Of a stretch of DNA of 54,913 nucleotides, positions 2,901 through 54,913 are shown in pieces (position 1 is the stretch's first letter; each line of letters starts with the position of its first letter). Origin of the DNA: a virus (taxonomy: Duplodnaviria; Caudoviricetes); IMG/VR virus record IMGVR_UViG_3300049489_000585, positions 1-54,913 of that record. One strand, 5' to 3'. The notes beneath the pieces were generated by a model, which had not been told where the DNA came from, did not search any database, and saw only the letters and a program-made list of their open reading frames with translations. The position numbers and the translations under genes are program-made.

Positions 2901-2936
2901 GCTGCATTTGCATCTTTACATTCGCGTGCCTACGCG

Positions 2937-3574: not shown

Positions 3575-3582
3575 CGTTGAGC
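3488..3582 (+). other. attC: attC13 (95 bp), last site of array
   Basis: GCCCAAC...GTTGAGC. TGAAGCCCAAC pairs with GTTGGGCTTCA at 2984. Confidence 0.9.
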
Positions 3583-3583
3583 C

Positions 3584-4426: not shown

Positions 4427-4453
4427 GGGGCTCCTTGGTGGTGGTGGGCTTGG

Positions 4454-4789: not shown

Positions 4790-4908
4790 CGGGTCCTTTC
4801 GGTGGTGGTCAGAAGAAAGGCGGGCGGCCGTTGCCGGCGCGTGGTGGGAATCGAGGGAGGGAGGAGACAGGAGGTGCCCACCGCGCAGGATTCGCCCGTG
4901 GAAATGGG

Positions 4909-5088
4909 TCAGTCGCAGCGCGTGCAGCGATTGAGCTCGGACACGCCGTGCGGACAGCGGGAGGCCCGCGCAGCGTTGCCGGCGGCCAGCGCGAGTTGGC
5001 GCTGCAGGCGTTCGATGGCGTCGGCCGCCTCTCGCTGCAGAAGCACGTTGGGCGGGCTCTCGCGAAGCCGCTGGATGAGAGCGTCCAT
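4909..5088 (-). CDS. Small hypothetical protein (CPHG...C..C)
   Basis: TGATG coupling with the upstream ATPase. Confidence 0.65.
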   Translation of the reverse strand: MDALIQRLRESPPNVLLQREAADAIERLQRQLALAAGNAARASRCPHGVSELNRCTRCD

Positions 5089-6884: not shown

Positions 6885-6888
6885 GGCG

Positions 6889-7989
6889 TCACTCCACGGC
6901 AGGGCCAGCGGCGCGGGCGCGGCGGGCGGTGGGGGCTGCCGTCGCAGCGGCAGGCGCCTGGCCGGCGGCCTCGGCCTGTTCGCGCGCGCGGATCGCGGCT
7001 TCCTCGGCGGCGCTGGGTGCCCAGTCGTCGCCGGGGCCTTGGTCCGGCGGCGGGGCCGGGGCAGGCGGCGCAACGGCGGTGACGGCCGGCGGTTTCGGTG
7101 GCTTCGGCGGATCGACCTCGCCGGTCGGATCATCGCCACCACCGGCGCCGTCAGCCTCGGCATCCGGCAGGAATCCGAAGTCGCCGTCGATCACGTCCAT
7201 GCGCTGGTCCTGGCCACGCGAGGCAGCTTCATCAAGCCCAGCCGCGGTCTGGAACTCGATCGACAGCGGCAGGTACTTGGCCAGCCGACGGATCACCGTC
7301 TTGCGGCCCATCTCGACGAAGTGAGCGACCCACGGATGAGCGGCTTCCTTCTTGTACTTCTGGGCCTGTTGGAACCCCTGCGACGCGGCGCGGATGGCCT
7401 CGATCTGGTGGGTGCTCATGAACTCGAAGCAGTGGCCGCCGTCCTTCAGCTTGGCCACTGCGTAGAAGCCGACCACGCCGCCGCGGTCGCCCATCGCAGG
7501 CGTGTGGTTCAGCTTCTCGTCTAGGCCGTAGACCAGCTCGAATCGATCGTTCTCGCAGACCTCGTGCGCGGCGATGCTCACGATCTGCCCACTGCGCCGG
7601 GCCAGGTCGATCAGCCCCTTGTAGCCGATGATCACCTGCACGCTGTTGACCCAGCGCTCGTTGCCGTCGGCGTCCTTGCGCTTGGTGTTGAAGGGCACGA
7701 GGTAGGCGTGGCCGAGCACGGTGTTCGGCTCCAGGCCCATCTGCGCGCACTGGCCGATGGCGCCGACCAGAGACGCCACATCGCACTTGGCCAGGGCCGG
7801 CGTGGTGGTGGCCGCGATCTGCGCAACCTTCAGCAGCCGATCGATGCTCAGCGTCTTCGGCAGCATCTTGGCCAGGTCGCCCTTCTTCTTCTCAAGCAGG
7901 TAGGCGATCTGCTCCTTCGGCTTCATGTCGGCCAGCGGCCGGGTGGCGACCGCGCTGGCGGACTTCAGTTCTGCGATGTTGGTGGACAT
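6889..7989 (-). CDS. recT: RecT-family ssDNA annealing recombinase
   Basis: GLEPN..LGHAYLVPF, IIGYKGLIDLARRSG, EMGRKTVIRRLAKYLPLSIE. Confidence 0.93.
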   Translation of the reverse strand: MSTNIAELKSASAVATRPLADMKPKEQIAYLLEKKKGDLAKMLPKTLSIDRLLKVAQIAATTTPALAKCDVASLVGAIGQCAQMGLEPNTVLGHAYLVPFNTKRKDADGNERWVNSVQVIIGYKGLIDLARRSGQIVSIAAHEVCENDRFELVYGLDEKLNHTPAMGDRGGVVGFYAVAKLKDGGHCFEFMSTHQIEAIRAASQGFQQAQKYKKEAAHPWVAHFVEMGRKTVIRRLAKYLPLSIEFQTAAGLDEAASRGQDQRMDVIDGDFGFLPDAEADGAGGGDDPTGEVDPPKPPKPPAVTAVAPPAPAPPPDQGPGDDWAPSAAEEAAIRAREQAEAAGQAPAAATAAPTARRARAAGPAVE

Positions 7990-7996
7990 GGTGTTC

Positions 7997-8839
7997 TCAC
8001 TCGTGGAAGTTGCAGGTAGACCAGCGCGCGCAATACTTCTCAGCGCACAGCATGGACTGGGGGTTAGGCGGGAACAGTCCCGTCCGAAACATCTCGGCCG
8101 CGAACTCGATCAGCCCGCGCTGGCCGTCGGCGCCGACCATCACGCGCTTGGCATCGAAGACCTTCGACGCCATGACCTGCGGCTTGCTGCTGGTCTGCAG
8201 TGCCAGCACCTGGCCGCCTAGGGTCTCCACCTGTTCGGTGTGCTCGTACATCAGTTGGTAGGTGCCGACCTGGGCGCTGCGGCCCTTGACCTTGGCCTCG
8301 CCCTTCTCGATGACGCGCGAGCCAGACTTGAGGTCCGGGATCACGATGCCGTCATCGGTGGCGGCCACGCGAGCGCGATCCATGGTGCCGGTCAGCCGGA
8401 TGACGATGCCACTGCCGCAGTCGATGTCGAGCGGGTCGAGCTTCTGCTCCACGCTCTTGAACGTGAACCGGGGCGACAGGTCCAGGCAGTACATCGTGTG
8501 CAGCTGCAGGCCGATCTTCTCGGCGTCGCTGACGGTCAGGTCATCCTTGCTGTAGTCCACGTCACGATCGGGCTTGTGCAGCGCGTCGACAAAGGCGCCC
8601 GCGGCGTCGTTGACCGACATGCGGCTGCCGCCCGGCAGGCGCCCGCTGTCGAAGGCCGCGGTGCTGGCGTGGAGTGCGGTGCCCAGCTGCGCGCGCAGGC
8701 CCGAGGCGTTGCGCATGCCCAGCAGGTGCTCGCCTTCCCACCGATGGGCGCAGTCGAACAGGCCACCCCAACTGGATGCGCGCACGGCGGTGACGCTGCG
8801 CTCAGCGACGACGGGGATGATGCGTTCAGGCGCGTTCAC
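7997..8839 (-). CDS. PD-(D/E)XK RecB/Cas4-like exonuclease (RecT partner)
   Basis: GTALH, LTGTMD, PDLKSG, QVGTYQL, C-terminal Cys cluster. Confidence 0.85.
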   Translation of the reverse strand: MNAPERIIPVVAERSVTAVRASSWGGLFDCAHRWEGEHLLGMRNASGLRAQLGTALHASTAAFDSGRLPGGSRMSVNDAAGAFVDALHKPDRDVDYSKDDLTVSDAEKIGLQLHTMYCLDLSPRFTFKSVEQKLDPLDIDCGSGIVIRLTGTMDRARVAATDDGIVIPDLKSGSRVIEKGEAKVKGRSAQVGTYQLMYEHTEQVETLGGQVLALQTSSKPQVMASKVFDAKRVMVGADGQRGLIEFAAEMFRTGLFPPNPQSMLCAEKYCARWSTCNFHE

Positions 8840-9374
8840 AGCGGATTCCCCCAGAACTCAAACACCTTCGCCCAGGCCTTGGCCGCAGCGTTGCGGCGCG
8901 TCATGCCACTGCGGCGGTAGAAGCGATACAGCCGGATGAGCGTCACAGCAGCACCACCGCGGCGGCAGCGCCCAGGATCGCGGCAATGGCGGCCCACTGC
9001 ACCCAGGGCAGCCACCGCGACGTGCTGCGGGCCTCGGCGTCGACCAATGCGGCGAGCTCGCTGCTGTACTCCAGGCCGTCCCGGATGTCGGAGTCGTGCG
9101 TCATGCCGGCCTCACGCTCAGGCGCTGCAGGTCGTCGTCCAGCGCATCGATGGCAGCGATCACGGCATCGCAACTGCTGCGCGCGATCAGGGTCAGCGTG
9201 CCACTGGCGCCGCTGCGGAGAACGTAGCGGGCGAGGAAGGTGCGCATCACGGCTTCACCTCATCAACAACGGTGCCGCCGACCAGCGCCCCGGCTGCCCA
9301 CATGGCCAGCATCGACAGCGCGATGCCGGACAGCAGGCCCAGCAGGAACGCGAACGCAAGAAGGTCGGGGCGCA

Positions 9375-9764
9375 TCACGTGTTCCTCGGCATCTTGTCCA
9401 GCGCGCGCTGCAGTTCAGTGGCGAGGTGCTCCATCCAGTCGGACGAGATCCACACCTCGTTCAGCTTGACCGCGAACACCGTGTACCCGTCGTGCGGGTG
9501 CCGCTCGTCCGCCGGCTCGACCTCGCACGCGACATCCCACACCGCGCCGCGGTACGGCACGCCGACGATCGCGTCACCGGGGCGGATCTGGATCTGGTGC
9601 TGCGGGCCGCGGCGGGCGGGGATCAGCGCTGCCTCAGCGGCAAGCGCGGTGTAGTGCTCGACGGCGCGGGCCTTGTCGACCGGCCGCTCAAGCACCGCCT
9701 GCGCGGCCTCGAATTCACCGAACGAGCTGTCCGACACGTCGGGCGTGGGGATGCGGGCGTTCAT
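9375..9764 (-). CDS. Hypothetical protein
   Basis: GGAGG RBS and ATGA coupling. Confidence 0.7.
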   Translation of the reverse strand: MNARIPTPDVSDSSFGEFEAAQAVLERPVDKARAVEHYTALAAEAALIPARRGPQHQIQIRPGDAIVGVPYRGAVWDVACEVEPADERHPHDGYTVFAVKLNEVWISSDWMEHLATELQRALDKMPRNT

Positions 9765-10018
9765 GCTGCCTCCGCGACGAGCCCGGCCGGCAACGCTTCA
9801 CGCCGCCCCGCCTTGGCGGCCTTGACGGCCTGCCGGCGGCCCAGCGCCTTCACGTTGGCGCGGCGCAGCTTCTTCTCCGCGCTGGCCGTGTGCTGACCCA
9901 GCCAGTCGCCACCCTTGGCCGGCTTCGGTGCGGCCGGGTGCTTCACGCCCTGGCCATGTCGGCGCCCCGAGCCCTTCTTGGTCGGGTGCTCCGTTCGTTG
10001 GTCGGTGATCTGCGGCAT
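9761..10018 (-). CDS. Basic hypothetical protein, first gene of leftward operon
   Basis: GGGAG RBS just downstream of the PL-like promoter. Confidence 0.65.
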   Translation of the reverse strand: MPQITDQRTEHPTKKGSGRRHGQGVKHPAAPKPAKGGDWLGQHTASAEKKLRRANVKALGRRQAVKAAKAGRREALPAGLVAEAA

Positions 10019-10051
10019 CTGCGGCTCCCGGTGCGTGTTGCGATGGGATGA

Positions 10052-10080
10052 AATCTACACGCACCGTTTATGCATGTCAA
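10052..10080 (-). promoter_or_regulatory. Leftward early promoter (PL-like)
   Basis: TTGACA-17-TAGATT on the minus strand. Confidence 0.8.
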
Positions 10081-10114
10081 CGGGTTGTGAAGAAAATTCT
10101 TTTCTCACGGGCCG

Positions 10115-10143
10115 TTGACTGTCTCAAACGAAGCGTTTAGCAT
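10115..10143 (+). promoter_or_regulatory. Rightward early promoter (PR-like), probably leaderless cro mRNA
   Basis: TTGACT-17-TAGCAT with the ATG 7 nt after the -10. Palindrome AAACGAAGCGTTT in the spacer. Confidence 0.8.
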
Positions 10144-10150
10144 CGGCGCT

Positions 10151-10387
10151 ATGGACGAAATCATCGACAAGGCTTGCGAGGCCGCAGGCGGGCTGACAAA
10201 GCTCGCAGAGGCCATCGGTCAGAGTACGCAGACTGTCTCGAACTGGCGATCTCGCGGCGTCCCCGTCGTGCACTGCGCAGCCATCGAACAGGCCACCGGC
10301 GGCAAAGTCACGCGCCGCGATCTGCGACCCGACGACTGGGCTCGCATCTGGCCCGAGCTGGCCGAGCCCACCAAGGCCGCAGCGTGA
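10151..10387 (+). CDS. cro: Cro/YdaS-like HTH regulator
   Basis: GGLTKLAEAIGQSTQTVSNW HTH and IEQATGGKVTRRDLRPDDW..IWPEL. Confidence 0.88.
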   Translation: MDEIIDKACEAAGGLTKLAEAIGQSTQTVSNWRSRGVPVVHCAAIEQATGGKVTRRDLRPDDWARIWPELAEPTKAAA

Positions 10388-10582
10388 CCGGAGCCGCTGC
10401 ATGACCATGCTCTCCCAACGCACCGCGCTCGCGGTCATCGGCCGGCTGTCGGCCAATCCGATCCCACTGCGCCCGCTGTGCGCGTGCTTCCCCGGCACCT
10501 GCCGCGGTGGCCAGGTCATCGACGGGCGGCTGGCCACCGGACAGTGGTGCAGGGCGCAGGTGCAGGCGGGGAGGGCGGGATC

Positions 10583-11434
10583 ATGACCGCCCCCCGCCCA
10601 GGCTCCTCGATCGACCGCGCCATGCGCGCGCTGCAGGCGTCCGGCCCGCTGCCGCGCGCTGAGCTGGCCCGCCTGATCGAGCGCGAGGACGACGAGCTCG
10701 ACGGCCTGCTTCGCTACGGCTTGCGCATGGGCCTGCTGGTGCGCAGCAACGGCGGCGATGACGTGTCCTATGCGCTGGGGGATGGGGTGCCGGTGGAGAT
10801 CGAGGCTCGGCCATCGGAGCCCCCAGCGAACGAATACACCGCGCGGCGGGGATCGCAACACGTTTTGAAGGCAGAGGCCGCCAGGCCCGACGCTACGGAC
10901 CGCGACACCCCCGCCATCATCAGCCCGGTCGGCGGACCCATGGGCATAGGGCAAGCTGCCGCCGCAGCCCCACGACAGAGCCTTGGCCAGCCGACTGCCG
11001 TGCTGGCCGAGCTGCGGCCCGGCCCCTACCAACCTCAGTCCGGCAGTCAGGCCGCGATCCTGCTGGCCTACCTGCAGCAGCACGCGCCGCACGGCGGGGA
11101 AGCGTGGCTGTCGCCTGCCGATCTCGCCGCGTCCGGGGCCAAGCAGTTCACCGTGCGCGCGAGCCTGGACACCGCGATGAAGTGCGGCGCCGTGTTGTCC
11201 AGGGGTAAGCCTCAACGCTATCAGTGCGGGCCGAACGCGCCCGTGGTGGCGGGCGTGGCGCCGACGGCAGAGCCTGCTGCTGCGCCTGCGCCTGACACCG
11301 CCGCAGCTGTCGAGCTCGCGGCCTTTCTGCTGAAGCAGATGGACGGCGAGATCGAGCGCCTGCAGAACAACCTGCGGGTGGTGCGCCGGCGGCGCGAGGA
11401 CTTCGCTGCGGCGATGAAGGGGAGGCGCGCTTGA
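10583..11434 (+). CDS. Hypothetical protein with possible winged-helix segments
   Basis: Coupled ORF in the rightward operon. Confidence 0.65.
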   Translation: MTAPRPGSSIDRAMRALQASGPLPRAELARLIEREDDELDGLLRYGLRMGLLVRSNGGDDVSYALGDGVPVEIEARPSEPPANEYTARRGSQHVLKAEAARPDATDRDTPAIISPVGGPMGIGQAAAAAPRQSLGQPTAVLAELRPGPYQPQSGSQAAILLAYLQQHAPHGGEAWLSPADLAASGAKQFTVRASLDTAMKCGAVLSRGKPQRYQCGPNAPVVAGVAPTAEPAAAPAPDTAAAVELAAFLLKQMDGEIERLQNNLRVVRRRREDFAAAMKGRRA

Positions 11435-37408: not shown

Positions 37409-38031
37409 GTGACCGGCATGACGCGCGACGAGTTCAGCGCCATCGAGCCGGCAGCACTGGGCGCCGTCGACATCGGCGACGAGGCGAACGGCACCGCCCA
37501 GCGCGTCGTCGTCAGGGCGCTGAAGGTTGGCCAGCTTCCAGCCTTCGCGCGCGCTGTGCGGCCGCTGACGGCGCAGGTCGAGGCGCTGATCGCCGGCGGC
37601 CTGTCGGTGAACGCCGTGCTGGCGCTGCTGGAGCAGCACACCGACAAGGTCGTCGAGGCCCTGGCGGTGGCCACCGGTGCGTCGTCTGCCGCGCTGAACG
37701 ACAGCAGCGTCGAGCAGATCGGCGAGCTGCTGCTGGCCGTGCTGGCGGCGAACAAGGATTTTTTGCGCGGCCGGCTGACGGCAGCCCTTCGGACGGCCGC
37801 GACGTTGAACCCTGGGGCTGGGCAGACACCGTCGCAGCCCTGAAGGCGTCCGGGTCGTGGTCGCTCGACGAGATCAAGGGGCTGACGCTTGAGCAGGTTC
37901 GCGACTTCCTGACGGCAGCCGACAGGCAGCAGCGCGACCGCCGGCTCGGCGACGCGATCGCCGCACGGATGGCCCAGGCCGAAGGCAAGCACTGGAAGGC
38001 CTACGTGAAGGGGATCAAGGGTGGCCGCTGA
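37409..38031 (+). CDS. Tail assembly chaperone G (37409-37843) and -1 frameshift G-T extension
   Basis: Slippery GGATTTTTTG at 37756-37765. The -1 frame is open up to the tape-measure start. Confidence 0.8.
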
Positions 38032-46200: not shown

Positions 46201-47570
46201 CGGCACAGGCTGCGCGCGCGGCATCCGGCTGGAGGTCCACCATCACCCTGCAGAACATCGGCGGCGGATCGTCGGTGGGCGTTGGGTCGGTGCTGACCGC
46301 GCAGTTCACGCGCTACTACACGGTCGGCCCCGACCTGTTCGGCGATGTCACGCAAGCCGGCATCACGTTTTCGACCACCAGGACGCGGGCGCAGGCCCTT
46401 GGAGACTGGGCGACCATCGCGAACCTGAACAGCGTGCTTCGGGCGCGCGGCTGGAACATCTACCTGGACGGCAGCGACGCCAATCCGTCGGTGCAGCTGT
46501 TCGGACCGATCGGCGAGGAATGGGATGTCTACCCGACGCCTGCGGGCACGCCGCCGAACTCGATCTTCTTCGGCCTGGAGCAGAGCATCGCGACGCGAGG
46601 CGGCCCGGCCATCCTGACAGACCGGCCGCAGATCGTCACGGCGACGCTGACCGGCACGCCGAACCCGGGCGACCTGTACACGGTGACCCTGAATGGCGTG
46701 GACTACACCTACACCGCGCTGACGACCGACGACCTCGCTGGCGTGGCCTACGGGCTGGCCACGGTGATCAACGCAGCATCTACCTTCAACGCCACGTCGG
46801 CCGCTAGCGTGATAACGATTGACGGCATCCTGGCGTCCAACGTCTACACCTACTCCGGGTCCGCCTCCGGTGCGCACGCCTACGGCCAGGTCGGCGCCGA
46901 CGCCTTCTGGACCAGCACCACCTTCCTGCTGAACACGCTGGGCGCCGACAACTCGACGACCTTCACCGACGCCAGCACGCTCGGCCACACGGTCACCACG
47001 AACGGCGGCGCAAAGGTCACCAGCAGCCAGCTGGACGCCGACGGCAACGGGGACTTCCTGTCAGTGCCGGGCCATACCGGCTTCGACTTCGGCTCCGGCG
47101 AATTCTGCGTCGAGGCCATCGCAGCGGTGCGCAACAACCCAGGGACAGGCCCGCGCCCGATCATCGCCAGATGGAAGAACGGGCTCAACCAGCTGGCGTT
47201 CTTCCTCGGCGTCGACAACTCGAACAAGCTGGTCTTCTACTACTCGACGGACGGAACCAACGGGGTGTTTACGCCGGTCACCTCGAGCTCGATCGCCGTT
47301 GGCACGACGCCGCAGCACTTCATGGCGAACAGGATCAGCGGCACGCTGCGCCTGTTCATTGCTGGGATCAAGCTGTACGAGGCGACGCACTCCGGGGCGA
47401 TCTTCGTGCCCACCAGCACCCCGCTGACGATCGCCGGCGTCGACTACTCGTCGTCGAGCTCGCACACCGACCTGCTGGGCAAGCACCGGACGTTCCGCAT
47501 CACCAAGGGGTCCGGCCGCGGCTACACGGCGAACTTCACGCCGCCGACGGGGCCGTTCGCGAACTACTGA
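43275..47570 (+). CDS. Tail tip/central fibre protein with LamG-like domains
   Basis: GYRYKMGLH, MNPAHIIY.CLT...WGMG, RPYPPG, C-terminal DFGSGEFCVE...FRITKG..RGYTANFTPPT. Confidence 0.9.
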   Translation: MGSSSSSRVAGYRYKMGLHFGICQGPIDRLRSIIVGERIAWQGGKTDNASFRVQAQQLFGGDEREGGIAGDAVAMFGANTQTLPGAVAALLPSPSPAFRGVFTLAYDGLIGSNNPYIKPFAFKVQRTLAGWNAGPWLPDKCEIGALGAETFSFTVLQSRFAGGDASDESGFLHGAPTQSGGSVTSSGFRVDSDNAATPSTPSTLTYDWPGFGDAGVGPLTLEFFIEWEATPNIAYTPCVRLITDTTNVSGTTQDFGFTGSGGAMVYNDAGFGVEYSGSVAPVFPVHCAVVLDDDEKSVYIGGTRVHNATGAIPPSANPMRLILGDPAGYTSGLTRFSISGFRVRREALYSGATITPPTSIPDPDVAAAQTGNVAMNPAHIIYQCLTDPVWGMGYPTATIGSTFEDAANALYDEGFGLCLLWNKQEELGAFIRIVLDHIGGVLYADPKTGLFELKLLRADYDPGTLPVFGPTEIREVESFQRVGYGETINEITVVFRDVETNKDTPVTVQNLANVQAQGAVVSTTRQYPGLPSADLALRVAQRDLIAASTPLAKGRVTMNREAWSLVPGGVFKLSFPKLGLDSVVVRVLDIDYGELADGTVSAQVAEDVFGLPDSSYAAQEPIGWEEQDNEPAAIVHQEIIEAPYRGLVGAMTVAELAAVDEDSSYLCALAARPSDTATGFSIYSRVGAAEFLRRGAGSFVPWGELDADIGHTDTALVLAAGALDLEAVVLGGLAIIGTGAAAEWVRVDAINIGTRTLTVARGMLDTVPAAHAAAAPVWLGDGSLGIEGIERVTAEDVDFQLLTRDGLGSLPLGEATTISLAGDQRQARPYPPGKLQINGTSYPSSASDALTITWAHRDRLQQTADFIAQTASSIGPEAGTTYSAELRNAADVVIASASGLTGTIWVPTITQGGTYDATVRLWSVRGGLESWQVHDHTFSYTSAGVSIGAPGQTGVVTASLVFPAAGAAIALALTQTAQAARAASGWRSTITLQNIGGGSSVGVGSVLTAQFTRYYTVGPDLFGDVTQAGITFSTTRTRAQALGDWATIANLNSVLRARGWNIYLDGSDANPSVQLFGPIGEEWDVYPTPAGTPPNSIFFGLEQSIATRGGPAILTDRPQIVTATLTGTPNPGDLYTVTLNGVDYTYTALTTDDLAGVAYGLATVINAASTFNATSAASVITIDGILASNVYTYSGSASGAHAYGQVGADAFWTSTTFLLNTLGADNSTTFTDASTLGHTVTTNGGAKVTSSQLDADGNGDFLSVPGHTGFDFGSGEFCVEAIAAVRNNPGTGPRPIIARWKNGLNQLAFFLGVDNSNKLVFYYSTDGTNGVFTPVTSSSIAVGTTPQHFMANRISGTLRLFIAGIKLYEATHSGAIFVPTSTPLTIAGVDYSSSSSHTDLLGKHRTFRITKGSGRGYTANFTPPTGPFANY

Positions 47571-47644
47571 TGGCCGGCGGTTGACGGGCGTCTGTCGCGC
47601 GCCTGTTTCCGCCCGAGCCGACTTGTCCCGCCGTTGTCCCGCGA

Positions 47645-48928
47645 TCAGCCGACTTTGCGGTCTTTCGACTTGCGCAAGTCATTGATTTTCAACACGTGCG
47701 CACCGCGGGAACGGGTTGTGATTCTGGTCGTCGTGGGTTCGAGTCCCATCAGCCACCCCACCCTATGAGAATCGGCCACTTCGGGGGCCTTTTTCTTGGC
47801 CGGCTCGGACGGCACTTGTCGCGCCGTTGTCGCAGGCCCGATGTTCCCGGCCCATGCCGCGACGTGGCTCGGCGCCAAGTGGGCGTAGCGCTGCAGCATG
47901 TCGGCCGAAGCCCAGCCGCCGAGTTCCTGCAGGGCGCTGTCAGGCGTTCCGGCCATGCGGTGCCAGCTGGCCCAGGTGTGCCGCAGGTCGTGCCAGCGCA
48001 GCGTGGGTAGCCCGGCCCGAATGCAGGCCTTGCGCCAGGCCGCGCTGCTGGCCTTGCCGGTGGGCATCTCCCAGGTCAGCCGCGGCTTGTCCTCCGGCCG
48101 GCGCTTCTTGGTCCACCGCGGGGCCGGGAACACCCAGCGCTTGTGCATGCCCTGCTGGCCGCGCAGCACGTCCATGGCGTCGGGGTTCAGCGGCACCGAG
48201 AGCGCCTTGCCGGCCTTGGCCTCGTCGGCGTGCACCCAGGCGGCCGCCCGCGGCAGGTCGACCTCTGACCACTGCAGCAGCCGGACGTTGCTCTCGCGCA
48301 GGCCGGTGGCCAGCGCGAAGCGGGCCATGGCGCGCAGGTGGTCCGGCAACTCGGCCAGCAGCGCCAGCGCTTGCTCGTGCGTGATCCAGTTCGTGCGGCC
48401 CTCGGGCTCGTGCAGCTTGGGCACCGGGGGCGGCGCCGGCAGCCAGCCGCGCAGTTGGGCGTGCTTCAGGATGCGCGACAGGTCGCTCAGGTAGCGGTTG
48501 ACGGTGGCCGGCGACAGCATGCGCGGCGCCGGTGGCCTCTCTCCGGCAGCCTTGGCGGCCTCGATGTCGGCGGCGTTCGCCGGCTCGGCCTGGCGCTCGC
48601 TGCTGATCTTGCGCACCATGTCGGCGGTGATGCCGGCCAGCGGCTTGCCGATCAGGCGGGCGGACAGCCAGCGGAGGTTCCGCTTGGCCTCCTCGAGGCT
48701 GCGCAGGTGCTGGTGCTCATCCAGCCACGACAGGACCGCTTCGTCCCAGGTGTGGGACGGCGCCTCACCTAGACGGTGCTGCCGCCACTGATCGCGGTAA
48801 GCCGTGGCGGCCCACTCCTTCGCCGCGGCTTCGTCCGTGGTGCCAGTGCTGCGGACAAAGCGCCGGCCGTCCTGGGCGGTGAAATCGACCCACCAGGTGC
48901 CGCGCTTGCCTCGTCGGTAGACCCGCAT
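47645..48928 (-). CDS. int: Phage tyrosine integrase
   Basis: STGT, ATVNRYL, TGLRESN, HDLRHTWASW, LGGW, RYAH. Confidence 0.95.
   Translation of the reverse strand: MRVYRRGKRGTWWVDFTAQDGRRFVRSTGTTDEAAAKEWAATAYRDQWRQHRLGEAPSHTWDEAVLSWLDEHQHLRSLEEAKRNLRWLSARLIGKPLAGITADMVRKISSERQAEPANAADIEAAKAAGERPPAPRMLSPATVNRYLSDLSRILKHAQLRGWLPAPPPVPKLHEPEGRTNWITHEQALALLAELPDHLRAMARFALATGLRESNVRLLQWSEVDLPRAAAWVHADEAKAGKALSVPLNPDAMDVLRGQQGMHKRWVFPAPRWTKKRRPEDKPRLTWEMPTGKASSAAWRKACIRAGLPTLRWHDLRHTWASWHRMAGTPDSALQELGGWASADMLQRYAHLAPSHVAAWAGNIGPATTARQVPSEPAKKKAPEVADSHRVGWLMGLEPTTTRITTRSRGAHVLKINDLRKSKDRKVG
47716..47760 (+). other. attP: attP core = 3' half of tRNA-His(GTG)
   Basis: TTGTGATTCTGGTCGTCGTGGGTTCGAGTCCCATCAGCCACCCCA gives the anticodon loop, T-arm, acceptor strand and CCA. 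The 5' half is absent. Confidence 0.9.
47774..47797 (+). terminator. Terminator for reconstituted tRNA
   Basis: GGCCACTTCGGGGGCC followed by TTTTTCTT just after the CCA. Confidence 0.6.
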
Positions 48929-49122
48929 TCGTCCTTGCTCCCTGCCGCTGGCGGCCGATGGTACTGGGTGCGCACCCACTCGATCAGATCCTCGTCGATG
49001 AACAGCCACGCCCGCCCGACCTTGGTCGCCGGCAGCCCGCGGCGCTCGATGGCCTCGGTGACGGTGTCCGGGTGCGCCTTCAGCATCTTGGCGGCGCGGG
49101 TGAGGGTGAGGATGCGGGCCAT
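48769..49122 (-). CDS. xis: Excisionase-like HTH protein
   Basis: LTLTRAAKMLKAHPDTV...GLPATKVGRAWLF. Overlaps the int start. Confidence 0.8.
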   Translation of the reverse strand: MARILTLTRAAKMLKAHPDTVTEAIERRGLPATKVGRAWLFIDEDLIEWVRTQYHRPPAAGSKDECGSTDEASAAPGGSISPPRTAGALSAALAPRTKPRRRSGPPRLTAISGGSTV

Positions 49123-49124
49123 GG

Positions 49125-50222
49125 TCAGACCAGCGAGTCCAGCGGGCTGCGCACGCACATGCCGCCCTGCTTGGCCGGCAGGACGTGGGTATAGATCATC
49201 GTGGTCTCCAGATCGGCGTGGCCGAGTAGGGCCTGAATCGTGCGGATGTCGTACCCGTCCTGCAGCAGGTGGGTGGCAAAGGAGTGCCGCAATGTGTGCG
49301 GGGTGGCGCGCTTCATGATCCCGGCGCCGGCCACGGCCCGGGCCATCAGGCGCTGGATGCCGTCCTCGTGAAGGTGGTGGCGCCTGACAAGGCCAGTCCG
49401 CGGGCACGTGACGTAGGTGTCGGTGGCGAAGATCCACTGCCAGCGGATGTCCTGCCCGGCCCGCGGGTACTTCAGGTGCAGCGCGTGCGGAAGCTCGACG
49501 TCGGCCCGGCCGGCAGTGAGGTCGACCTGGTGCAGCGCCTTGCGCGCTTCCATCACCTCGCGCAGCTGGCCGGCCAGCGATCGCGGCAGCATGACGGTTC
49601 GATCCTTGGCGCCCTTGCCGTCGCGGACGGTGATGCTGCTCGACTCGATGTCCGCGTCCTGCATGCGCAGGCGCAGACCTTCCGTCAGCCGCAGGCCAGC
49701 GCCGTACAGCAGGCGCAACACCAGGCCGCGGATGTTGGCCTGCGGGATCTGCAGCCACAGGCGCGCCACCTCGTCCCGAGTGAGCACGACCGGCAACTTC
49801 TGCGGCTGCTTGGCGCGCACGATTCCCTCGACCCATGGCAGCTCGACCTGCAGGGCTTGCTGGTACAGGAAAAGCAGCGCGGCCAGGGCCTGGCGCTGGG
49901 TGCTGGCCGACACGTCGCGCACCTGGGCAAGATGCGTGAGGAACTGCGACACCTCCGGCGCGCCCATCTCGAGCGGGTGGCGCTTGCCGGACCACAGCAC
50001 GAACTGGCGCGTCCAGTGCCAGTAGGCCTGCTCCGTACGGCGCGAATAGTGTTTGGCCCTGATCGCGCCGACCACCAGGTGGCGCAGGTGGCCAGGCTCA
50101 CCCGGCTGCGGCTCACTCGCGGATGCAGGAACGCTGCTGCGGGCCAGCCCATCTCCGCGAGCCAGCGCGACAGCGCGGCGCGTAACGGGCTGGCAGGTCG
50201 GCGGTGCTTGGAGGATGGCCAT
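49125..50222 (-). CDS. intI: Integron integrase
   Basis: HYSRRTEQAY, STQRQALAALLFLY, LPVVLT, LLYGAGLR, GKGAKDR, IntI-specific insertion LPHAL..KYPRAG...WQWIF...RRHH, HTLRHSFATHLL, LLGH.D..TTMIYTHV, RSPLD. Confidence 0.97.
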   Translation of the reverse strand: MAILQAPPTCQPVTRRAVALARGDGLARSSVPASASEPQPGEPGHLRHLVVGAIRAKHYSRRTEQAYWHWTRQFVLWSGKRHPLEMGAPEVSQFLTHLAQVRDVSASTQRQALAALLFLYQQALQVELPWVEGIVRAKQPQKLPVVLTRDEVARLWLQIPQANIRGLVLRLLYGAGLRLTEGLRLRMQDADIESSSITVRDGKGAKDRTVMLPRSLAGQLREVMEARKALHQVDLTAGRADVELPHALHLKYPRAGQDIRWQWIFATDTYVTCPRTGLVRRHHLHEDGIQRLMARAVAGAGIMKRATPHTLRHSFATHLLQDGYDIRTIQALLGHADLETTMIYTHVLPAKQGGMCVRSPLDSLV

Positions 50223-50229
50223 GGCGTCG

Positions 50230-50270
50230 GGTGTTACACCGCAGATCCTGCGGTCGAATTGAAGTTAGGC
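50230..50270 (+). other. attI: attI site
   Basis: Core G|TTAGGC at 50264 is not part of an attC hairpin. Upstream TGTTACACCGCAG resembles the attI1 accessory repeat at similar spacing. Confidence 0.8.
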
Positions 50271-50518
50271 GTCTCAACGCGCTCCCACCAGCCGCCCCAC
50301 TCAGCAGGCGTCAGTCTGTCGGCGTGCAAGTGTTCGTGCGGCTGGCAGCACTTCAGCTTGCGCGGCATGTAGTCGTTCGGCCTATCGCCTTGCAAGCGCG
50401 GCGCGCTGGCGTTGGTGTAGCCAACGAACAGCACTTGTTCGCGCATGCGTCCGAGCACGTCGCTATAGCGGTTCCGGTAGGTGCCAACCTCGGTCGGCAA
50501 GGTCTTTGTGTACGCCAT
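50234..50518 (-). CDS. Cassette 1: hypothetical protein
   Basis: AAGGAG RBS. Reads through attI and stops 11 nt before the intI ATG. Confidence 0.7.
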   Translation of the reverse strand: MAYTKTLPTEVGTYRNRYSDVLGRMREQVLFVGYTNASAPRLQGDRPNDYMPRKLKCCQPHEHLHADRLTPAEWGGWWERVETPNFNSTAGSAV

Positions 50519-50564
50519 CGCTTTCTCCTTTGTTCGCTGGCCTGGGTCACGCGCCGGTGGCAAC

Positions 50565-50630
50565 GCCTAACCCGTCGTCCGACCTGACAGCCCCGGCAAG
50601 CCGGGTCTGCAGGTCAACTTTGCGTTAGGG
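50565..50630 (+). other. attC: attC1 (66 bp)
   Basis: GCCTAAC...GTTAGGG. ACGCCTAAC pairs with GTTAGGCGT at attI. Confidence 0.92.
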
Positions 50631-50631
50631 C

Positions 50632-51381
50632 TCAAAACCCCATGCCCTGCTGCTCCGGCACGGGCTGCGCCAAATCGAGCAGGGAACCTTGCGCGTAAGC
50701 GGCTTCTATCCGCTGGCACGCCAAATCGAAGGCAGCGCGGTCAACCTCGCAGCCTATGAACTTCCGCCCAGCGCGGGCACATGAAACGCCAGTCGTTCCT
50801 GCGCCCATGTGCGTGTCCAGCACCGTGTATCCGGGCCGCGAGTAGTCCGCCACCAGCGCATCCATCAGCAGGGTCGGCTTGCCACCCATGCGGGCCTTGT
50901 CGTTCCAGCCAGGCCCGGCCACGTAGCCGCCCGGCAGCGTGCCCCACTTCATCTGCGCCTTGGTGCGCGCCACCACAATCCAGTCCGTCCACGAGCTGGG
51001 GCCGTCACCACTCAGGCGCACAGCGCGCCCCGGCTGGTAAAAGGGCAGCGGTGCAAACGCATAGCGCCCGGCCTTCTCCAGCGCGGTGCGCACAGCCAGC
51101 GCCAAGTCGCTGTCGGTCATCCACACCACCCAGCCGCTGCACACCCGCGTGTACTGCTCGGCAAAGTACGCCACGTCTTCAAGCGTCAGCGCGCGGTAGC
51201 CCAGGGCCTGCCGTTCGGCGCTGTCGCGTGCTTTCGAGGCACCGGCATCGTGGCCCGCGTGGCACCGTTCGCTGTAGGGCGGGTCGGTTATCACCGCGTC
51301 CACGCTGGCAAGCGTGGGCAGCACTTCGCGGCAATCACCGCGGTGCAGTGTGGCTTGCCCAATGGTCACGGTCTCCAGCAT
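50632..51381 (-). CDS. Cassette 2: N6/N4 DNA methyltransferase (beta class)
   Basis: GDC.EVL, ITDPPY, KP, VLDTHMGAGTTG, FIGCE. Confidence 0.92.
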   Translation of the reverse strand: MLETVTIGQATLHRGDCREVLPTLASVDAVITDPPYSERCHAGHDAGASKARDSAERQALGYRALTLEDVAYFAEQYTRVCSGWVVWMTDSDLALAVRTALEKAGRYAFAPLPFYQPGRAVRLSGDGPSSWTDWIVVARTKAQMKWGTLPGGYVAGPGWNDKARMGGKPTLLMDALVADYSRPGYTVLDTHMGAGTTGVSCARAGRKFIGCEVDRAAFDLACQRIEAAYAQGSLLDLAQPVPEQQGMGF

Positions 51382-51405
51382 TCGTTGTCCTCGTAGCAAA
51401 TACAG

Positions 51406-51464
51406 CCCTAACAGGTCGCTCAAACGGACGGGCCTACGGCCCGCCGTTTAGCTTTGCGTTAGCC
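51406..51464 (+). other. attC: attC2 (59 bp)
   Basis: CCCTAAC...GTTAGCC. AGCCCTAAC pairs with GTTAGGGCT. Confidence 0.92.
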
Positions 51465-51922
51465 CGCTCAAGCGGATCCAGCACAAATTCCGCGATGTGA
51501 CGGCCGGTGCCCTTTCCTGCGGATCCGTCCTCGGTCGCAAGCCAGCGCACGTCGCCCAGGTTGCGTACCTTCGCGCCCTCGGCCAGCAGCATCAGCACCC
51601 ACTTGTCTATCGGGTACACCAGCACCACGCGCTTGCCCTTCTTGGCTTCGGCAATCGCCTTCCGGGCCCAGGCCGTCGGCCCCTTCTTCTTCCCCTGGTG
51701 CATCACGGATCCAAAGGGCGGGTTGACGTAGTTACTTTCGCCCCACTCGCACGTAAGGCCGTCGAACTCGGGCGGCTTCGGGTAAGGGCACGGGTCGAAG
51801 GTGAAGCTGTAGCGCGCGTGCAGGTCTGCGAACAAATCCGGCGGCGTCAGCCAGTAGTGCTTGCCATCGTCGCCGTTGCCAGCGTGGAACTTGTTTGCGT
51901 CAGGTGCTAGGTTGTTTGCCAT
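51434..51922 (-). CDS. Cassette 3: phage Dam-like N6-adenine methyltransferase
   Basis: WLTPP, FDPCP, DGL..EW, YVNPPF. Stop lies inside attC2. Confidence 0.85.
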   Translation of the reverse strand: MANNLAPDANKFHAGNGDDGKHYWLTPPDLFADLHARYSFTFDPCPYPKPPEFDGLTCEWGESNYVNPPFGSVMHQGKKKGPTAWARKAIAEAKKGKRVVLVYPIDKWVLMLLAEGAKVRNLGDVRWLATEDGSAGKGTGRHIAEFVLDPLERANAKLNGGP

Positions 51923-51947
51923 CGTTCTCTCATTTGTTGTTGCAGCG

Positions 51948-52001
51948 GGCTAACCCGCCGCTGAACCGGACTGAGTACAGCCGGTTAGCTGCACGTTCGG
52001 C
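51948..52001 (+). other. attC: attC3 (54 bp)
   Basis: GGCTAAC...GTTCGGC. AGCGGGCTAAC pairs with GTTAGCCCGCT. Confidence 0.92.
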
Positions 52002-52009
52002 TTCATGCC

Positions 52010-52354
52010 TCAGTTCGCCATGTCGGCGGCAGCCAGCACAATCGCGCGCCTCGTGGCGGCCCGCGGGTCCGTTCCCCACAGCACATCGTGCGCCACAGCC
52101 TCGCCGTCAAAGGCAACGCCGGCCACCGTCACCGCGCCCTCGGTCAGAGTCTGCGCAATGTCTAGTTCCAGCGTCACGGCAAGGTCCAGCGCCTGGCCGC
52201 TGTCGGTCAGAGGGTTCCACCACGTCGCGTGCGTCAGCCACAGTGAGGGCTCGTTCGGCATCTCGGCCTCACGCTCGCTCTGCTTGCGTGCGTTCAGTCC
52301 GTAGCCGGCGGCTTGCGCGGCCTTCAGCAGCAGTTCTTTGTCCGTCAGCATCAT
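52010..52354 (-). CDS. Cassette 4: phage hypothetical protein (possibly NinX/ABA-sandwich-like)
   Basis: WNPLTDSGQALDLAV...ATRRAIV.AAA. AGGAG RBS. Confidence 0.75.
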   Translation of the reverse strand: MMLTDKELLLKAAQAAGYGLNARKQSEREAEMPNEPSLWLTHATWWNPLTDSGQALDLAVTLELDIAQTLTEGAVTVAGVAFDGEAVAHDVLWGTDPRAATRRAIVLAAADMAN

Positions 52355-52387
52355 CTCGCTCCTTTGAATTCACGCGCTCCGGCCGCA

Positions 52388-52439
52388 GCCGAACTACTCG
52401 CTCAAGCCGACCTTCGGCGGCTTAGCTCGAACGTTATGC
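52388..52439 (+). other. attC: attC4 (52 bp)
   Basis: GCCGAACTACTCGCTCAAGCCGACCTTCGGCGGCTTAGCTCGAACGTTATGC, a typical top-strand attC pattern. Confidence 0.92.
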
Positions 52440-52440
52440 A

Positions 52441-52851
52441 TCAGTAACCCGGGTAGTTGCGCTCGGCCTGCGCATCGTTGTGCTTGCTCCAATACTCTGC
52501 CTTCGCCGTGGTGTAGCTCCACTCGTTGCGCCCGTCTTCAGGCCCAGCCACCGTGTACGGTCCGAACTCACTTTGCACATTCCTTGCCCGCAGCGCCGAC
52601 AGAATGCAAGCCGGGCAATCGTTCGCAGCCTCACACATCGCCTTGAACCCACTCGCATCCAGCAGGCGCAGCAGTTCATCGCGCGGCGGCGCTGGCTCTG
52701 GCCCGCCATCGTCGTGCAGATTGGCGCACATGCCGCACACACGCTGCGGGTTCAGCGTGCAGCCGCGCTCGTGGCGCTTCATTGCGCTCGGGCTTCCGTT
52801 GCCCTTGTTGCAGTGGTCGCAGTAGTAGCGCGGCCTCATTGCGGTTCTCAT
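52441..52851 (-). CDS. Cassette 5: zinc-finger protein
   Basis: CDHC...H...C...C..C, CPAC. GAGGA RBS. Confidence 0.78.
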   Translation of the reverse strand: MRTAMRPRYYCDHCNKGNGSPSAMKRHERGCTLNPQRVCGMCANLHDDGGPEPAPPRDELLRLLDASGFKAMCEAANDCPACILSALRARNVQSEFGPYTVAGPEDGRNEWSYTTAKAEYWSKHNDAQAERNYPGY

Positions 52852-52878
52852 GCTTGTCCTCTCCGTTCACCAACTGAT

Positions 52879-52936
52879 GCATAACCCTTCGCTCGAACGG
52901 ACGGCCTACGGCCGCCGTTCAGCTCCCACGTTAGCC
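52879..52936 (+). other. attC: attC5 (58 bp)
   Basis: GCATAAC...GTTAGCC. ACTGATGCATAAC pairs with GTTATGCATCAGT. Confidence 0.92.
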
Positions 52937-52946
52937 AGACACATGC

Positions 52947-53294
52947 TCACTTCAGTATCTGGCGAAGAGCCCAGTACTCGGGGTTGACGATGGCGGTCAT
53001 GGCATCGCTGAACACCAGGCCGCCAATCAGCGCGGTAAGCCCGCAAACGATGCCGACGCCAATCCAAGCAAGGCCGCGGTCAAACTCATCGTTCCATTCG
53101 GGCCTATCACCAGATGTTTTCCTGCCCACAAAGCGCGCGACCCACACGCACGCAGCAGCCCACGCGGTCAACACCACCAAGTCAAGCGCGCCAGAGAGCG
53201 GAGCCTGCTTCACCAGCACGCCCCACAGATACTCCGCCGTTGTGCCGAGTTTGTTTGCCAGCGCCGTCACGGCCTGCAAGGTCTTGTCGTCCAT
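52947..53294 (-). CDS. Cassette 6: two-TM membrane protein
   Basis: LA.KLGTTAEYLW.VL.KQA, two hydrophobic helices, NPEYWAL. Confidence 0.78.
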   Translation of the reverse strand: MDDKTLQAVTALANKLGTTAEYLWGVLVKQAPLSGALDLVVLTAWAAACVWVARFVGRKTSGDRPEWNDEFDRGLAWIGVGIVCGLTALIGGLVFSDAMTAIVNPEYWALRQILK

Positions 53295-53331
53295 GTCATT
53301 CCTATTCGCATGCCAGCATTTCACCAGTGCT

Positions 53332-53394
53332 GGCTAACTGGCGCATGCAGCGGACTCGCCCTAGCGGGCTCGCGCGCTGATGCTGTCGTTCGGC
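53332..53394 (+). other. attC: attC6 (63 bp)
   Basis: GGCTAAC...GTTCGGC. CTGGCTAAC pairs with GTTAGCCAG. Confidence 0.9.
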
Positions 53395-53395
53395 C

Positions 53396-53713
53396 TCAAG
53401 TTCCAACCTTGTCGGCCGTCCCCTTCCAGGTGAATTCGCCATCGGCGCCCACCGGGAAGTGCGCGCGGCAGATGGCGCAGAACGTGCCGCTGTAGAAGGC
53501 GGGCTCGCGGGCATAGGTCTCGGCCAGCGCCAGGCCCATCGTCGTCACGCCGCCGCACTTTTCGTGCACGTAGGACTGGCGCACGGGCCGCACAAAGCCC
53601 TTCGCGCGCTCTTCGGCGCTCAGCACCACGTAGCCCTTCTGCTGCCCCGTGGCCGGGTCAATCTCGCGGTGGTCGGGCGTGACGGGCGAACCGTCTGTCA
53701 GCGTGGTGTTCAT
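53396..53713 (-). CDS. Cassette 7: zinc-ribbon hypothetical protein
   Basis: KGFVRPVR.SY.H.KCG, TFC..C..HFPV. Confidence 0.78.
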   Translation of the reverse strand: MNTTLTDGSPVTPDHREIDPATGQQKGYVVLSAEERAKGFVRPVRQSYVHEKCGGVTTMGLALAETYAREPAFYSGTFCAICRAHFPVGADGEFTWKGTADKVGT

Positions 53714-53926
53714 TGCTTCTCCGCAAGCTCGAAATTGAAGGCGCCGCCTTCGATGTTGAAAGAACAGACGAAACGCCCGGTCTCGTCCACCTCTTGCGCC
53801 GGAATCGACACCTTGCTGCCCAGCCTGCGCAGCAGCGCAATCAGAAGCTGGTCCTTGAAGTCGTCGATCACGTCCGCGTGCAGCCCAGCGCCAGCGGCGC
53901 GAGCGGCATCAGTTCCCTTGCCCATG
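53710..53926 (-). CDS. Cassette 7: hypothetical protein
   Basis: AAAGGA RBS before ATG 53926, ATGA coupling. Confidence 0.7.
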
Positions 53927-53953
53927 TCAGTCCTTTCGCGTCGGCGCATTGAG

Positions 53954-54054
53954 GCCGAACCCTTCGTTCCACCGGACAAGCCCCGGCGGGTGGCATTGGC
54001 GCAATGACCTACTTGGTCAGCGCCGGGTCTTGCCGGTGAACTCCGACGTTAGGC
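53954..54054 (+). other. attC: attC7 (101 bp)
   Basis: GCCGAAC...GTTAGGC. TTGAGGCCGAAC pairs with GTTCGGCCTCAA. Confidence 0.9.
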
Positions 54055-54269
54055 GTCTTGCTGTCATCGAAGCCGTGCTCCACGGCTCGCCAGTCGCCGC
54101 GCCTGGCTTCGCGCATGTCCAGCGCGCGGAATTCGGCCGTGATCTGCCTGCGGAACTTGCGCGCCGCGTTCACATCGGCAGTCACGGTCATGTTCACCTG
54201 ACAGGCCATGTAGAGCCCGGTGGACTTCCCGTCCTTGGTGAAGTTCTCCACCAGCCACGAGTACGTCAT
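54009..54269 (-). CDS. Cassette 8: hypothetical protein
   Basis: GAGGA RBS. Stop lies inside attC7. Confidence 0.7.
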   Translation of the reverse strand: MTYSWLVENFTKDGKSTGLYMACQVNMTVTADVNAARKFRRQITAEFRALDMREARRGDWRAVEHGFDDSKTPNVGVHRQDPALTK

Positions 54270-54484
54270 GAGTAGTCCTCGTCAAAGTTGCACGGCACCG
54301 TCCACTGCTTGCCGCAGCGGCTGCACTCGATGATGTCGTGATCGTCTATTACGCCGCAGCAGTCCACAGTGCGCGGCGCCGGGCATCTTTGCAGGTGCTT
54401 CTGGCAAAGCTCGGGCTTCTCGGCATCGTGCAGGCTGCACCCGCCTTTGATACGGCCACCTTCGTAGCGCTTAGGCGTCGTCAT
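54266..54484 (-). CDS. Cassette 8: small Cys-rich protein
   Basis: Multiple Cys, ECSRCGKQW..PCNFDEDYS, overlaps neighbours. Confidence 0.6.
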   Translation of the reverse strand: MTTPKRYEGGRIKGGCSLHDAEKPELCQKHLQRCPAPRTVDCCGVIDDHDIIECSRCGKQWTVPCNFDEDYS

Positions 54485-54746
54485 ACAGGTCGTATCGCTG
54501 GCAAAGCGCGTCCATGTCAAGCCGGGCGCGCTGCGTCACCAGTTCGCGTCCGTCACGAAATACCACGCAGCGGTAGCGCTGGCCCGGACGAATCTTCCAC
54601 TTGTCGGCCTCAACGCCTTCAAGCACCAGCCGCTCGTCAGCAGTTACGGCATCGCGCGGCTGGCCGTAACTGCGCCACATTTCGCTGGCGTCGCAGTCGT
54701 AGAACTTGCGCGCGGTTCTCACTTCGTCTTTCAGTACCAATACCAT
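54471..54746 (-). CDS. Cassette 8: hypothetical protein
   Basis: GAGGAG RBS. RTARK.Y.CDA...I.PGQRY. Confidence 0.72.
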   Translation of the reverse strand: MVLVLKDEVRTARKFYDCDASEMWRSYGQPRDAVTADERLVLEGVEADKWKIRPGQRYRCVVFRDGRELVTQRARLDMDALCQRYDLYDDA

Positions 54747-54769
54747 CGTTTGCTCCTCTGCGCCACGAC

Positions 54770-54823
54770 GCCTAACCCGTCATTCGAGCCGACCGTTCCG
54801 GCGGCTCAATTCCCACGTTGTGC
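54770..54823 (+). other. attC: attC8 (54 bp)
   Basis: GCCTAACCCGTCATTCGAGCCGAC...CGGCTCAATTCCCACGTTGTGC. GACGCCTAAC pairs with GTTAGGCGTC. Confidence 0.93.
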
Positions 54824-54913
54824 CGCACTGAACACCGCCGCGCCAGTTCCACCAGCCAAGCGCGGAACTCCGGCGGCGTGTGCTCTCGCTCGGCCTTGCT
54901 CATGATCTCGACC
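54815..54913 (+). repeat. Exact duplicate of 123-221 (start of cassette 9); circular overlap
   Basis: ACGTTGTGCCGCACTGAAC...GATCTCGACC is identical at both places. Confidence 0.95.

Follow-up and report, generated by a model that had tools for sequence, protein, structure and literature searches.

Organization of the phage integron

This report concerns an integron in the viral record IMGVR_UViG_3300049489_000585 (Caudoviricetes), a single contig of 54,913 nt with 67.7% GC, which is as a whole called the window below. The integron consists of an integrase gene (intI), a recombination site beside it (attI) and an array of 13 cassettes, each bounded by an attC site, with a total length of about 8.0 kb. 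The contig ends overlap, positions 127-221 being the same as 54819-54913, which closes the sequence into a circle. The array extends from 50265 to 54817 and, over the contig junction, as far as 3576, where 7 nt separate it from the stop codon of the gene at 3584-4426. An earlier reading made from the sequence alone (the sequence-only reading) had placed the array at 50265-54823. The array at that position is real, but the span holds only cassettes 1-8, and five more are found past the junction, at 126-3576; two attC sites, 724-823 and 3488-3582, were added by further attC scanning across the circular junction. The components are as follows, with open reading frames abbreviated as ORFs.

49125-50222, minus strand: intI, integron integrase of 365 amino acids (TIGR02249, Pfam, catalytic residues)
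50223-50270, plus strand: attI, about 43 nt conserved between the intI ATG and the crossover G at 50264, core GTTAGGC
50265-50624, minus strand: cassette 1; attC 50565-50630 (plus); ORF 50234-50518, stop codon in attI, 11 nt before the intI ATG
50625-51458, minus strand: cassette 2; attC 51406-51464 (plus); ORF 50632-51381, DNA methyltransferase (Pfam N6_N4_Mtase, phrog_67)
51459-51995, minus strand: cassette 3; attC 51948-52001 (plus); ORF 51434-51922, Dam-like (phrog_111), stop codon inside the attC of cassette 2
51996-52433, minus strand: cassette 4; attC 52388-52439 (plus); ORF 52010-52354 (phrog_5086)
52434-52930, minus strand: cassette 5; attC 52879-52936 (plus); ORF 52441-52851
52931-53388, minus strand: cassette 6; attC 53332-53394 (plus); ORF 52947-53294, membrane protein family (phrog_1486)
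53389-54048, minus strand: cassette 7; attC 53954-54054 (plus); ORFs 53396-53713 and 53710-53925
54049-54817, minus strand: cassette 8; attC 54770-54823 (plus); ORFs 54009-54269, 54266-54484 and 54471-54746 (phrog_13613)
126-817, beginning at 54818, minus strand: cassette 9; attC 724-823 (plus); ORF 128-784 (phrog_12600)
818-1252, minus strand: cassette 10; attC 1170-1259 (plus); ORF 825-1142
1253-1988, minus strand: cassette 11; attC 1905-1995 (plus); ORF 1253-1885, RNA ligase (Pfam RNA_ligase, phrog_548), its TAA stop codon formed by the R' box
1989-2984, minus strand: cassette 12; attC 2937-2990 (plus); ORFs 1989-2168, 2165-2578 and 2601-2846
2985-3576, minus strand: cassette 13, the distal end of the array; attC 3488-3582 (plus); ORF 2951-3574, DNA methyltransferase (phrog_954, E 2e-69)

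The intI product matches TIGR02249 with 412.7 bits (cutoff 265) over model positions 7-315 of 315 and carries the Pfam domains Phage_integrase and Phage_int_SAM_4. The IntI-specific insert is present, and all six residues aligned with the catalytic R, K, H, R, H and Y of IntI1 are conserved. With 55.9% identity to IntI1 the protein is not a class 1 integrase (IntI1 itself). An intact intI 43 nt from the array separates the locus from clusters of attC sites lacking integron integrases (CALINs), and its position on the minus strand, with the attC top strand on plus, separates it from integrons with an inverted integrase. When the intI upstream regions of the window and seven related loci were aligned, about 43 nt were conserved and divergence began exactly past the GTT at 50264, where a core of the GTTRRRY type, GTTAGGC, lies beside intI. 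The spacing from the crossover to the intI ATG is thus only 43 nt, and no Shine-Dalgarno motif is visible there in this eight-locus alignment. The conserved attI also contains a TAA, 11-12 nt before the intI ATG, which serves as the stop codon of the cassette 1 ORF; by our reading the ORF of the first cassette likewise stops at the attI TAA in four related loci (L001, L002, L013 and L021). Compared with IntI1 the integrase is about 32 residues longer at its N-terminus. The added part contains a conserved APPT..VTRR motif, shows a 12-codon in-frame indel among relatives and overlaps DNA that may also belong to attI.

Polarity of attC sites and strand of cassette genes

The top strand of the attC sites was assigned from their folds, computed with DNA parameters. 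In 10 of 12 sites the plus strand shows two bulges of 1 nt on its 5' arm, separated by 6 bp, the first being C or G and the second A; seen from the minus strand they belong to the 3' arm and read G/C and T. The two remaining sites, at 1170 and 1905, gave no canonical fold. A scanner of our own, which requires the bulge asymmetry, detected nine plus-strand sites and no minus-strand site in the window at the strict score, and none in 10 shuffles. Applied to a class 1 integron it identified as attC top strand the one that carries the annotated dfrA12 and aadA2 genes (gene strand taken from the record annotation), which confirms that its polarity convention is correct. The scanner was used in place of a covariance model since MAFFT alignments misaligned the 3' arms, whose loop lengths differ. 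In all, 13 attC sites with R'', L'', L' and R' arms were recognized. The location of attI and intI at the left end of the array also fits a plus top strand, as do two natural deletions, described below, that break at the right-hand GTT. Plus polarity, which the sequence-only reading had asserted, is therefore upheld, and the bulge analysis that it had named as a check did not reveal minus as the top strand. Complementarity between R' and the next R'', which is seen at each site, was considered as a polarity test and dropped because both polarities predict it.

All 18 supported ORFs of the array are on the minus strand and have the coding pattern GC3>GC1>GC2. In the 16 bases upstream of most of them a purine-rich Shine-Dalgarno-like motif can be read, while a few are without a clear one. 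A position-specific nucleotide model trained on intI called 10 of 10 window intervals inverted, i.e. with the gene opposite to the attC top strand. This model replaced a classifier with fixed GC thresholds that had left many intervals uncalled; on the class 1 control it returned only one canonical call and three uncalled intervals, the cassettes there differing in composition from intI1. PHROG families were matched by nine of the 18 minus-strand ORFs vs none of the 10 longest plus-strand ORFs. The earlier observation that every cassette ORF is inverted relative to its attC is thus confirmed. Classical integrons have ORFs on the attC top strand and a cassette promoter (Pc) at the intI/attI end; in the window none of the 18 ORFs is on that strand, and a consensus scan of 47000-54913, on both strands, found no promoter-like site.

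The nine PHROG matches are mostly DNA methyltransferases, together with an RNA ligase, a membrane protein family and three families of unknown function. By its content the cargo resembles an exchangeable collection of accessory or counter-defence genes of the phage. Four or five cassettes resemble orphan DNA methyltransferases (50632-51381, 51434-51922, 128-784 and 2951-3574), and the presence of multiple methyltransferase cassettes suggests selection for restriction escape.

Gain and loss of cassettes in natural populations

Cassettes of this array are gained and lost in nature. In the metagenome run X1, the probable source sample of the contig, one assembled contig joins 54045 to 54815 and so skips 769 nt (5 ambiguous letters) at a depth of 48.9, and another joins 51991 to 52927, skipping 935 nt (6 ambiguous letters) at a depth of 21.5. 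With crossovers assigned, the two deletions span 54049-54817 and 51996-52930, in each case from right-hand GTT to right-hand GTT with the break between G and TT. Both keep the whole left attC, which is predicted only by the plus-strand reading. The window itself carries the junction of the first deletion in its first 126 bases: positions 1-126 equal 53924-54049, so that the attC of cassette 7 is joined straight to cassette 9 in a form without cassette 8. Cassette 8, with a depth of about 9.5, is a minor variant in X1, and cassette 4 has a depth of 22.3 vs about 48 on its flanks. The depths are not simply additive, as cassette 5 is found at 47 and the joint skipping cassettes 4 and 5 at 21.5, probably because cassettes are common to other genomes in the sample; we claim from them presence/absence variants only.

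In three runs from other studies (X2, X3 and X23) cassette 8 is present in identical form, along with homologues of cassettes 1 and 2. In these runs cassette homologues begin or end at 50264, 50626 and 54819 and have other neighbours. The two deletion joints and the homologue boundaries agree with cassette mobility by crossover between G and TT. Microhomology-mediated deletion is, formally, an alternative source of the joints.

Some cassette ORFs reach beyond their own cassette. The stop codon of the cassette 9 ORF lies in the neighbouring attC (86-128, 54772-54819), so that the presence or absence of cassette 8 changes the last 14-16 residues of its product. Termination within the adjoining attC is also seen for the ORFs of cassettes 3, 8 and 13.

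A viral clade of integron integrases

A search for IntI homologues gave 47 loci on viral contigs, and the best 80 loci in bacterial genomes were taken for comparison. Of the attC sites detected by the scanner upstream of intI, 70 lie on the opposite strand and 5 share the strand of intI, which shows that the geometry of the platform is regular. In a FastTree phylogeny of 118 IntI rows the window belongs to a 29-member clade (support 97) formed by 27 viral contigs, the window and one contig of a metagenome-assembled genome (MAG) that is identical to two of the viral ones. Only one of the best 80 bacterial-genome matches falls in this viral clade, and the IntI1 group is its sister, with support of 86 at the joint node in this FastTree analysis.

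The inverted layout is shared across the viral clade and is not limited to the window. Among 56 cassette intervals of the clade 43 were inverted, 4 canonical and 9 uncalled, while 56 intervals from the bacterial loci (from the best 80) were divided into 19 inverted and 37 canonical (Fisher p = 1.2e-9). After removal of identical IntI rows the clade had 34 inverted to 4 canonical intervals (p = 5e-8). Two cassette proteins have homologues in 12 viral loci, located on 11 contigs, and at every one of these loci the attC sites at the flanks of the gene are on the other strand, which lends support to the idea in the sequence-only reading of a separate phage-specific cassette pool. One of these homologue loci has the order cassette, attC, IntI (52% identical), Int, and in another a homologue of the phage gene gp3584 is followed by an array with the cassette 2 methyltransferase at 99% identity. 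The phage integrase gene int follows intI in L001, L002, L004, L005 and L021, and in two relatives a divergent repressor homologue lies 8-9 kb upstream. Cassette content is almost never common between relatives.

The MAG that holds a clade member (G001) is Rubrivivax-like, of the Burkholderiales, which makes such bacteria candidate hosts of phages of the clade. It has a second IntI, 52% identical, on contig C79 (15370-16476), which may represent the host's own integron. This second IntI lies about 950 nt from the contig end, and the contig stops before any array. The cassette 4 protein had just three weak matches among 401 genomes of the order to which this MAG belongs.

Expression of the cassettes and alternative explanations

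In the accepted view integrons serve bacteria: their cassettes lack promoters and are transcribed from Pc, and the newest cassette is expressed best. In the window the array is part of an uninterrupted 17.1-kb block of the minus strand that runs from 10018 leftward, over the junction, to the int stop codon at 47645. All supported genes of this block are on minus, and the two widest gaps measure 298 and 201 nt. The cassette ORFs thus do share the strand of recT, intI and int, as had been noticed earlier; the xis gene named alongside them was not identified in the phage block. The features around the array that bear on its expression are listed below.

10052-10080, minus strand: sigma-70-like promoter candidate, TTGACA-17-TAGATT (consensus match only)
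3584-10018, minus strand: phage genes gp3584, gp4454, SbcC-like ATPase, RecT, exonuclease and small ORFs, upstream of the array
6889-7989, minus strand: RecT, within that block
7997-8839, minus strand: exonuclease, within that block
47645-49009, minus strand: int, phage integrase (phrog_1, E 7e-65), directly downstream of intI

We consider it probable, if by no means certain, that this is a functional integron in the leftward early block of a temperate phage and that its cassettes are expressed by phage read-through. The integron would be built into the leftward early block of recombination and lysogeny genes, and recombination would be canonical, with IntI acting on the folded attC bottom strand (here minus), crossover between G and TT, and attI beside intI. 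The cassette genes lie on the attC bottom strand and therefore face attI and intI. Phage transcription would enter the array at its distal end, with no Pc, possibly from the candidate at 10080-10052 or from another upstream promoter, and the transcript would pass all cassettes, then intI and then int. A cassette newly inserted at attI would be the last one before intI. Read-through from an upstream phage promoter is the most likely route of cassette expression that we infer from gene order and orientation, and the expression gradient would be reversed only if this read-through is real. What the data show directly is the anatomy, the attC polarity, the gene strand, the conservation in relatives and the natural gain and loss of cassettes, whereas transcription route, position effect and cargo function are inferred.

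The promoter named in the sequence-only reading at 10052-10080 does exist as a site. It is one of two consensus matches in 1-10600 vs 0.5 expected, and the only one on minus; the other, at 10115-10143 on plus, is divergent from it and lies next to a repressor-like gene. The array part of 1-10600 gave no promoter-like site in the consensus scan. Terminator-like sequences on the minus strand amounted to three weak matches in 47000-54913 and none in 1-10600, no more than in shuffles. The scans use the Escherichia coli consensus, which the host at 68% GC may not match.

Several points weigh against this interpretation. The promoter is a single consensus match, and the operon strand gave none when two relatives (L002 and L015) were scanned. 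The read-through would have to cover 6.5 to 14.5 kb past 13 hairpins, which probably needs antitermination, and no antiterminator was recognized among the phage genes. A weak intI promoter could still hide in the conserved attI segment. Contigs of the RNA library X23 match 54202-54689 of cassette 8 without differences, but they are strandless and could derive from DNA, and for that reason they were not counted as expression. As to the clade, four intervals were called canonical, several relatives are near-duplicates, and the strand classifier is our own; it left 9 of 56 clade intervals uncalled and called 19 of 56 bacterial intervals inverted, the latter calls being maybe partly noise.

Two other explanations accept the anatomy and differ on how the cassettes are used. 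Each inverted cassette could be expressed from a promoter within the cassette or attC, co-orientation with the phage genes serving just to avoid head-on transcription. There is space for a small promoter, since the ORFs lie 20-110 nt downstream of their own attC, most with a Shine-Dalgarno-like motif, cassette-borne promoters have been described for toxin-antitoxin cassettes (PMC13108822), and host promoters at 68% GC may escape E. coli consensus scans. Yet the scans returned no promoter-like site in 47000-54913 or in the array part of 1-10600, several cassette ORFs start inside their attC or overlap each other by 4 nt in the manner of an operon, and the cargo consists of ordinary phage genes and not of toxin-antitoxin pairs, so we regard such individual promoters as unlikely. 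It is also conceivable, and in our view rather improbable, that the cassettes are mostly silent stored cargo whose orientation is set by replication, an attC bottom strand on the lagging template raising recombination. In Vibrio, orientation relative to replication controls cassette dynamics (PMC13108822), and if replication began in the plus-strand early region, a leftward fork would put minus on the lagging template. On the other side, intact ORFs with coding composition, mostly ribosome-binding motifs and conserved homologues argue for use of the genes.

The anatomy itself could be questioned in two ways. If polarity had been misassigned, minus would really be the top strand and the cassettes would be ordinary. 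The attC sites are indeed near-palindromes in which both strands read RYYYAAC...GTTRRRY, and the R'/next-R'' complementarity does not discriminate; against this stand the plus-strand bulges in 10 of 12 sites, attI and intI at the left end, the two deletions that keep the left attC and break at the right-hand GTT, and the class 1 control that validates the convention, which leaves this explanation hardly credible. The array could alternatively be host chromosomal DNA joined by misassembly or by imprecise prophage prediction, considering that the contig closes inside the repetitive array and that cassettes are common to other genomes in the sample. This we find very improbable: a 4,267-nt X1 contig links int and intI through cassette 3, the junction of attC7 with cassette 9 lies within a 9,955-nt X1 contig extending beyond the stretch, both linking contigs have similar depths (about 48-52), and the order early genes, array, intI, int recurs in independent viral contigs.

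A more far-reaching form of the read-through interpretation can be offered tentatively, and is doubtful as a whole. The viral clade would be an integron lineage specific to phages, with class 1 IntI as its nearest sister, and the array an exchangeable tail of the early operon that works as a counter-defence library, a mirror image of the defence libraries in bacterial integrons, with cassette shuffling coupled to the phage life cycle. The attC bottom strand would be the non-template strand of early transcription, and probably also the lagging-strand template, so that it would be exposed when, after induction or infection, the phage transcribes its early genes and replicates. The stop codon 11 nt upstream of intI suggests that translation of intI may be coupled to that of the first cassette ORF.

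Comparison with known integrons and implications

The locus is like classical integrons (class 1 and proteobacterial chromosomal) in its IntI-specific domain, its attI next to an array placed divergently, its bulged attC and its crossover between G and TT. It is unlike them in having ORFs on the attC bottom strand, no Pc-like promoter found and an attI of just about 43 nt, as well as in intI lying downstream of the cargo and co-directional with it, inside a phage operon and with phage genes as cargo. Inverted cassettes are a minority in sedentary chromosomal integrons. The window resembles these inverted cassettes (e.g. of toxin-antitoxin type), with the ORF opposite the attC top strand and independent of Pc, but differs in that the whole array is inverted, and likewise the whole clade. 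For the inverted cassettes of sedentary chromosomal integrons, promoters of their own are reported (PMC13108822).

Integrons and CALINs with an integrase, attI and attC cassettes in a phage genome were described by Qi et al. 2023 (PMC9892861), and the locus resembles them in these components. In the accessible text of that paper the complete phage integrons are class 1 in P1 phage, Vibrio chromosomal integron fragments and Shewanella phage M16-3, and neither all-inverted ORFs nor an operon-embedded clade is described there. The record of Shewanella phage M16-3 has annotated cassette genes diverging from intI, which is the canonical layout. Co-directional intI and cargo are also known from integrons with an inverted integrase (Treponema type; PMC4889954 and PMC13323075). 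In the Treponema type intI is flipped and lies upstream of the array, and the ORFs match the attC top strand, while here intI is regular and the ORFs are flipped. In the portions available of PMC4889954, PMC13323075, PMC8876359, PMC11551772, PMC13108822 and PMC9024848 only regular and inverted-integrase layouts, divergent Pc and integrase promoters (Pint) and cassette-borne promoters appear, and our literature searches, which covered the accessible texts, found no publication on all-inverted phage integron arrays.

An unannotated integron was noticed in the virus Rctr41k (KX853513, L129) at 4680-10101. The gene annotated there as xerD is an IntI homologue, 47% identical, and it is followed downstream by at least six chained attC, which share their strand with intI and with the annotated genes. 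Judged by this arrangement, Rctr41k looks like the inverted-integrase type in a phage.

With a leftward early operon of the lambda type the window shares a divergent regulatory start by a repressor-like gene, recT with an exonuclease gene, accessory genes and int. It differs in that the accessory segment is replaced by a site-specific cassette platform and that neither an N-like antiterminator nor xis was identified among its genes. The likeness to the lambda PL operon is one of promoter consensus match, gene order and co-orientation.

The arrangement is thus one of regular intI, attI and attC geometry in which every gene nevertheless faces the integrase, inside a phage operon, and it is common to a viral clade. 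If read-through takes place, the position rule would be reversed, with the newest cassette expressed last, and intI would depend for its expression on the phage programme and not on an SOS-controlled promoter of its own. Integrons would then serve phages for the mutual exchange of accessory genes, in this case mainly DNA methyltransferases. This bears on cassette formation (the reason for adding attC in this orientation), on where cassettes circulate and on the home of the relatives of class 1 integrase.

The phage genome

Based on its large terminase (TerL), major capsid protein, Int and RecT, the contig is identified as a tailed temperate phage. TerL matches phrog_979 with an E value of 3e-163, and the other phage genes found are those of a major head protein, a phage integrase, RecT, an exonuclease and an SbcC-like ATPase. 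The redundancy at the contig end occupies the following positions.

1-221, no strand: contig-end redundancy, composed of the end overlap and the junction lacking cassette 8

ARAGORN calls a tRNA-Asp at 37419-37507 on the minus strand, which is probably a false call, as the Rfam search gave no matches, there or elsewhere. Next to int, the segment 47600-47843 has depths of 228, 92 and 380 in three metagenomes vs about 49 or less than 2 in the adjoining DNA, and loose contig ends occur at 47712-47763, between a tail gene and int. This depth peak looks like the core of a phage attachment site (attP) common to a host gene, possibly the 3' end of a tRNA.

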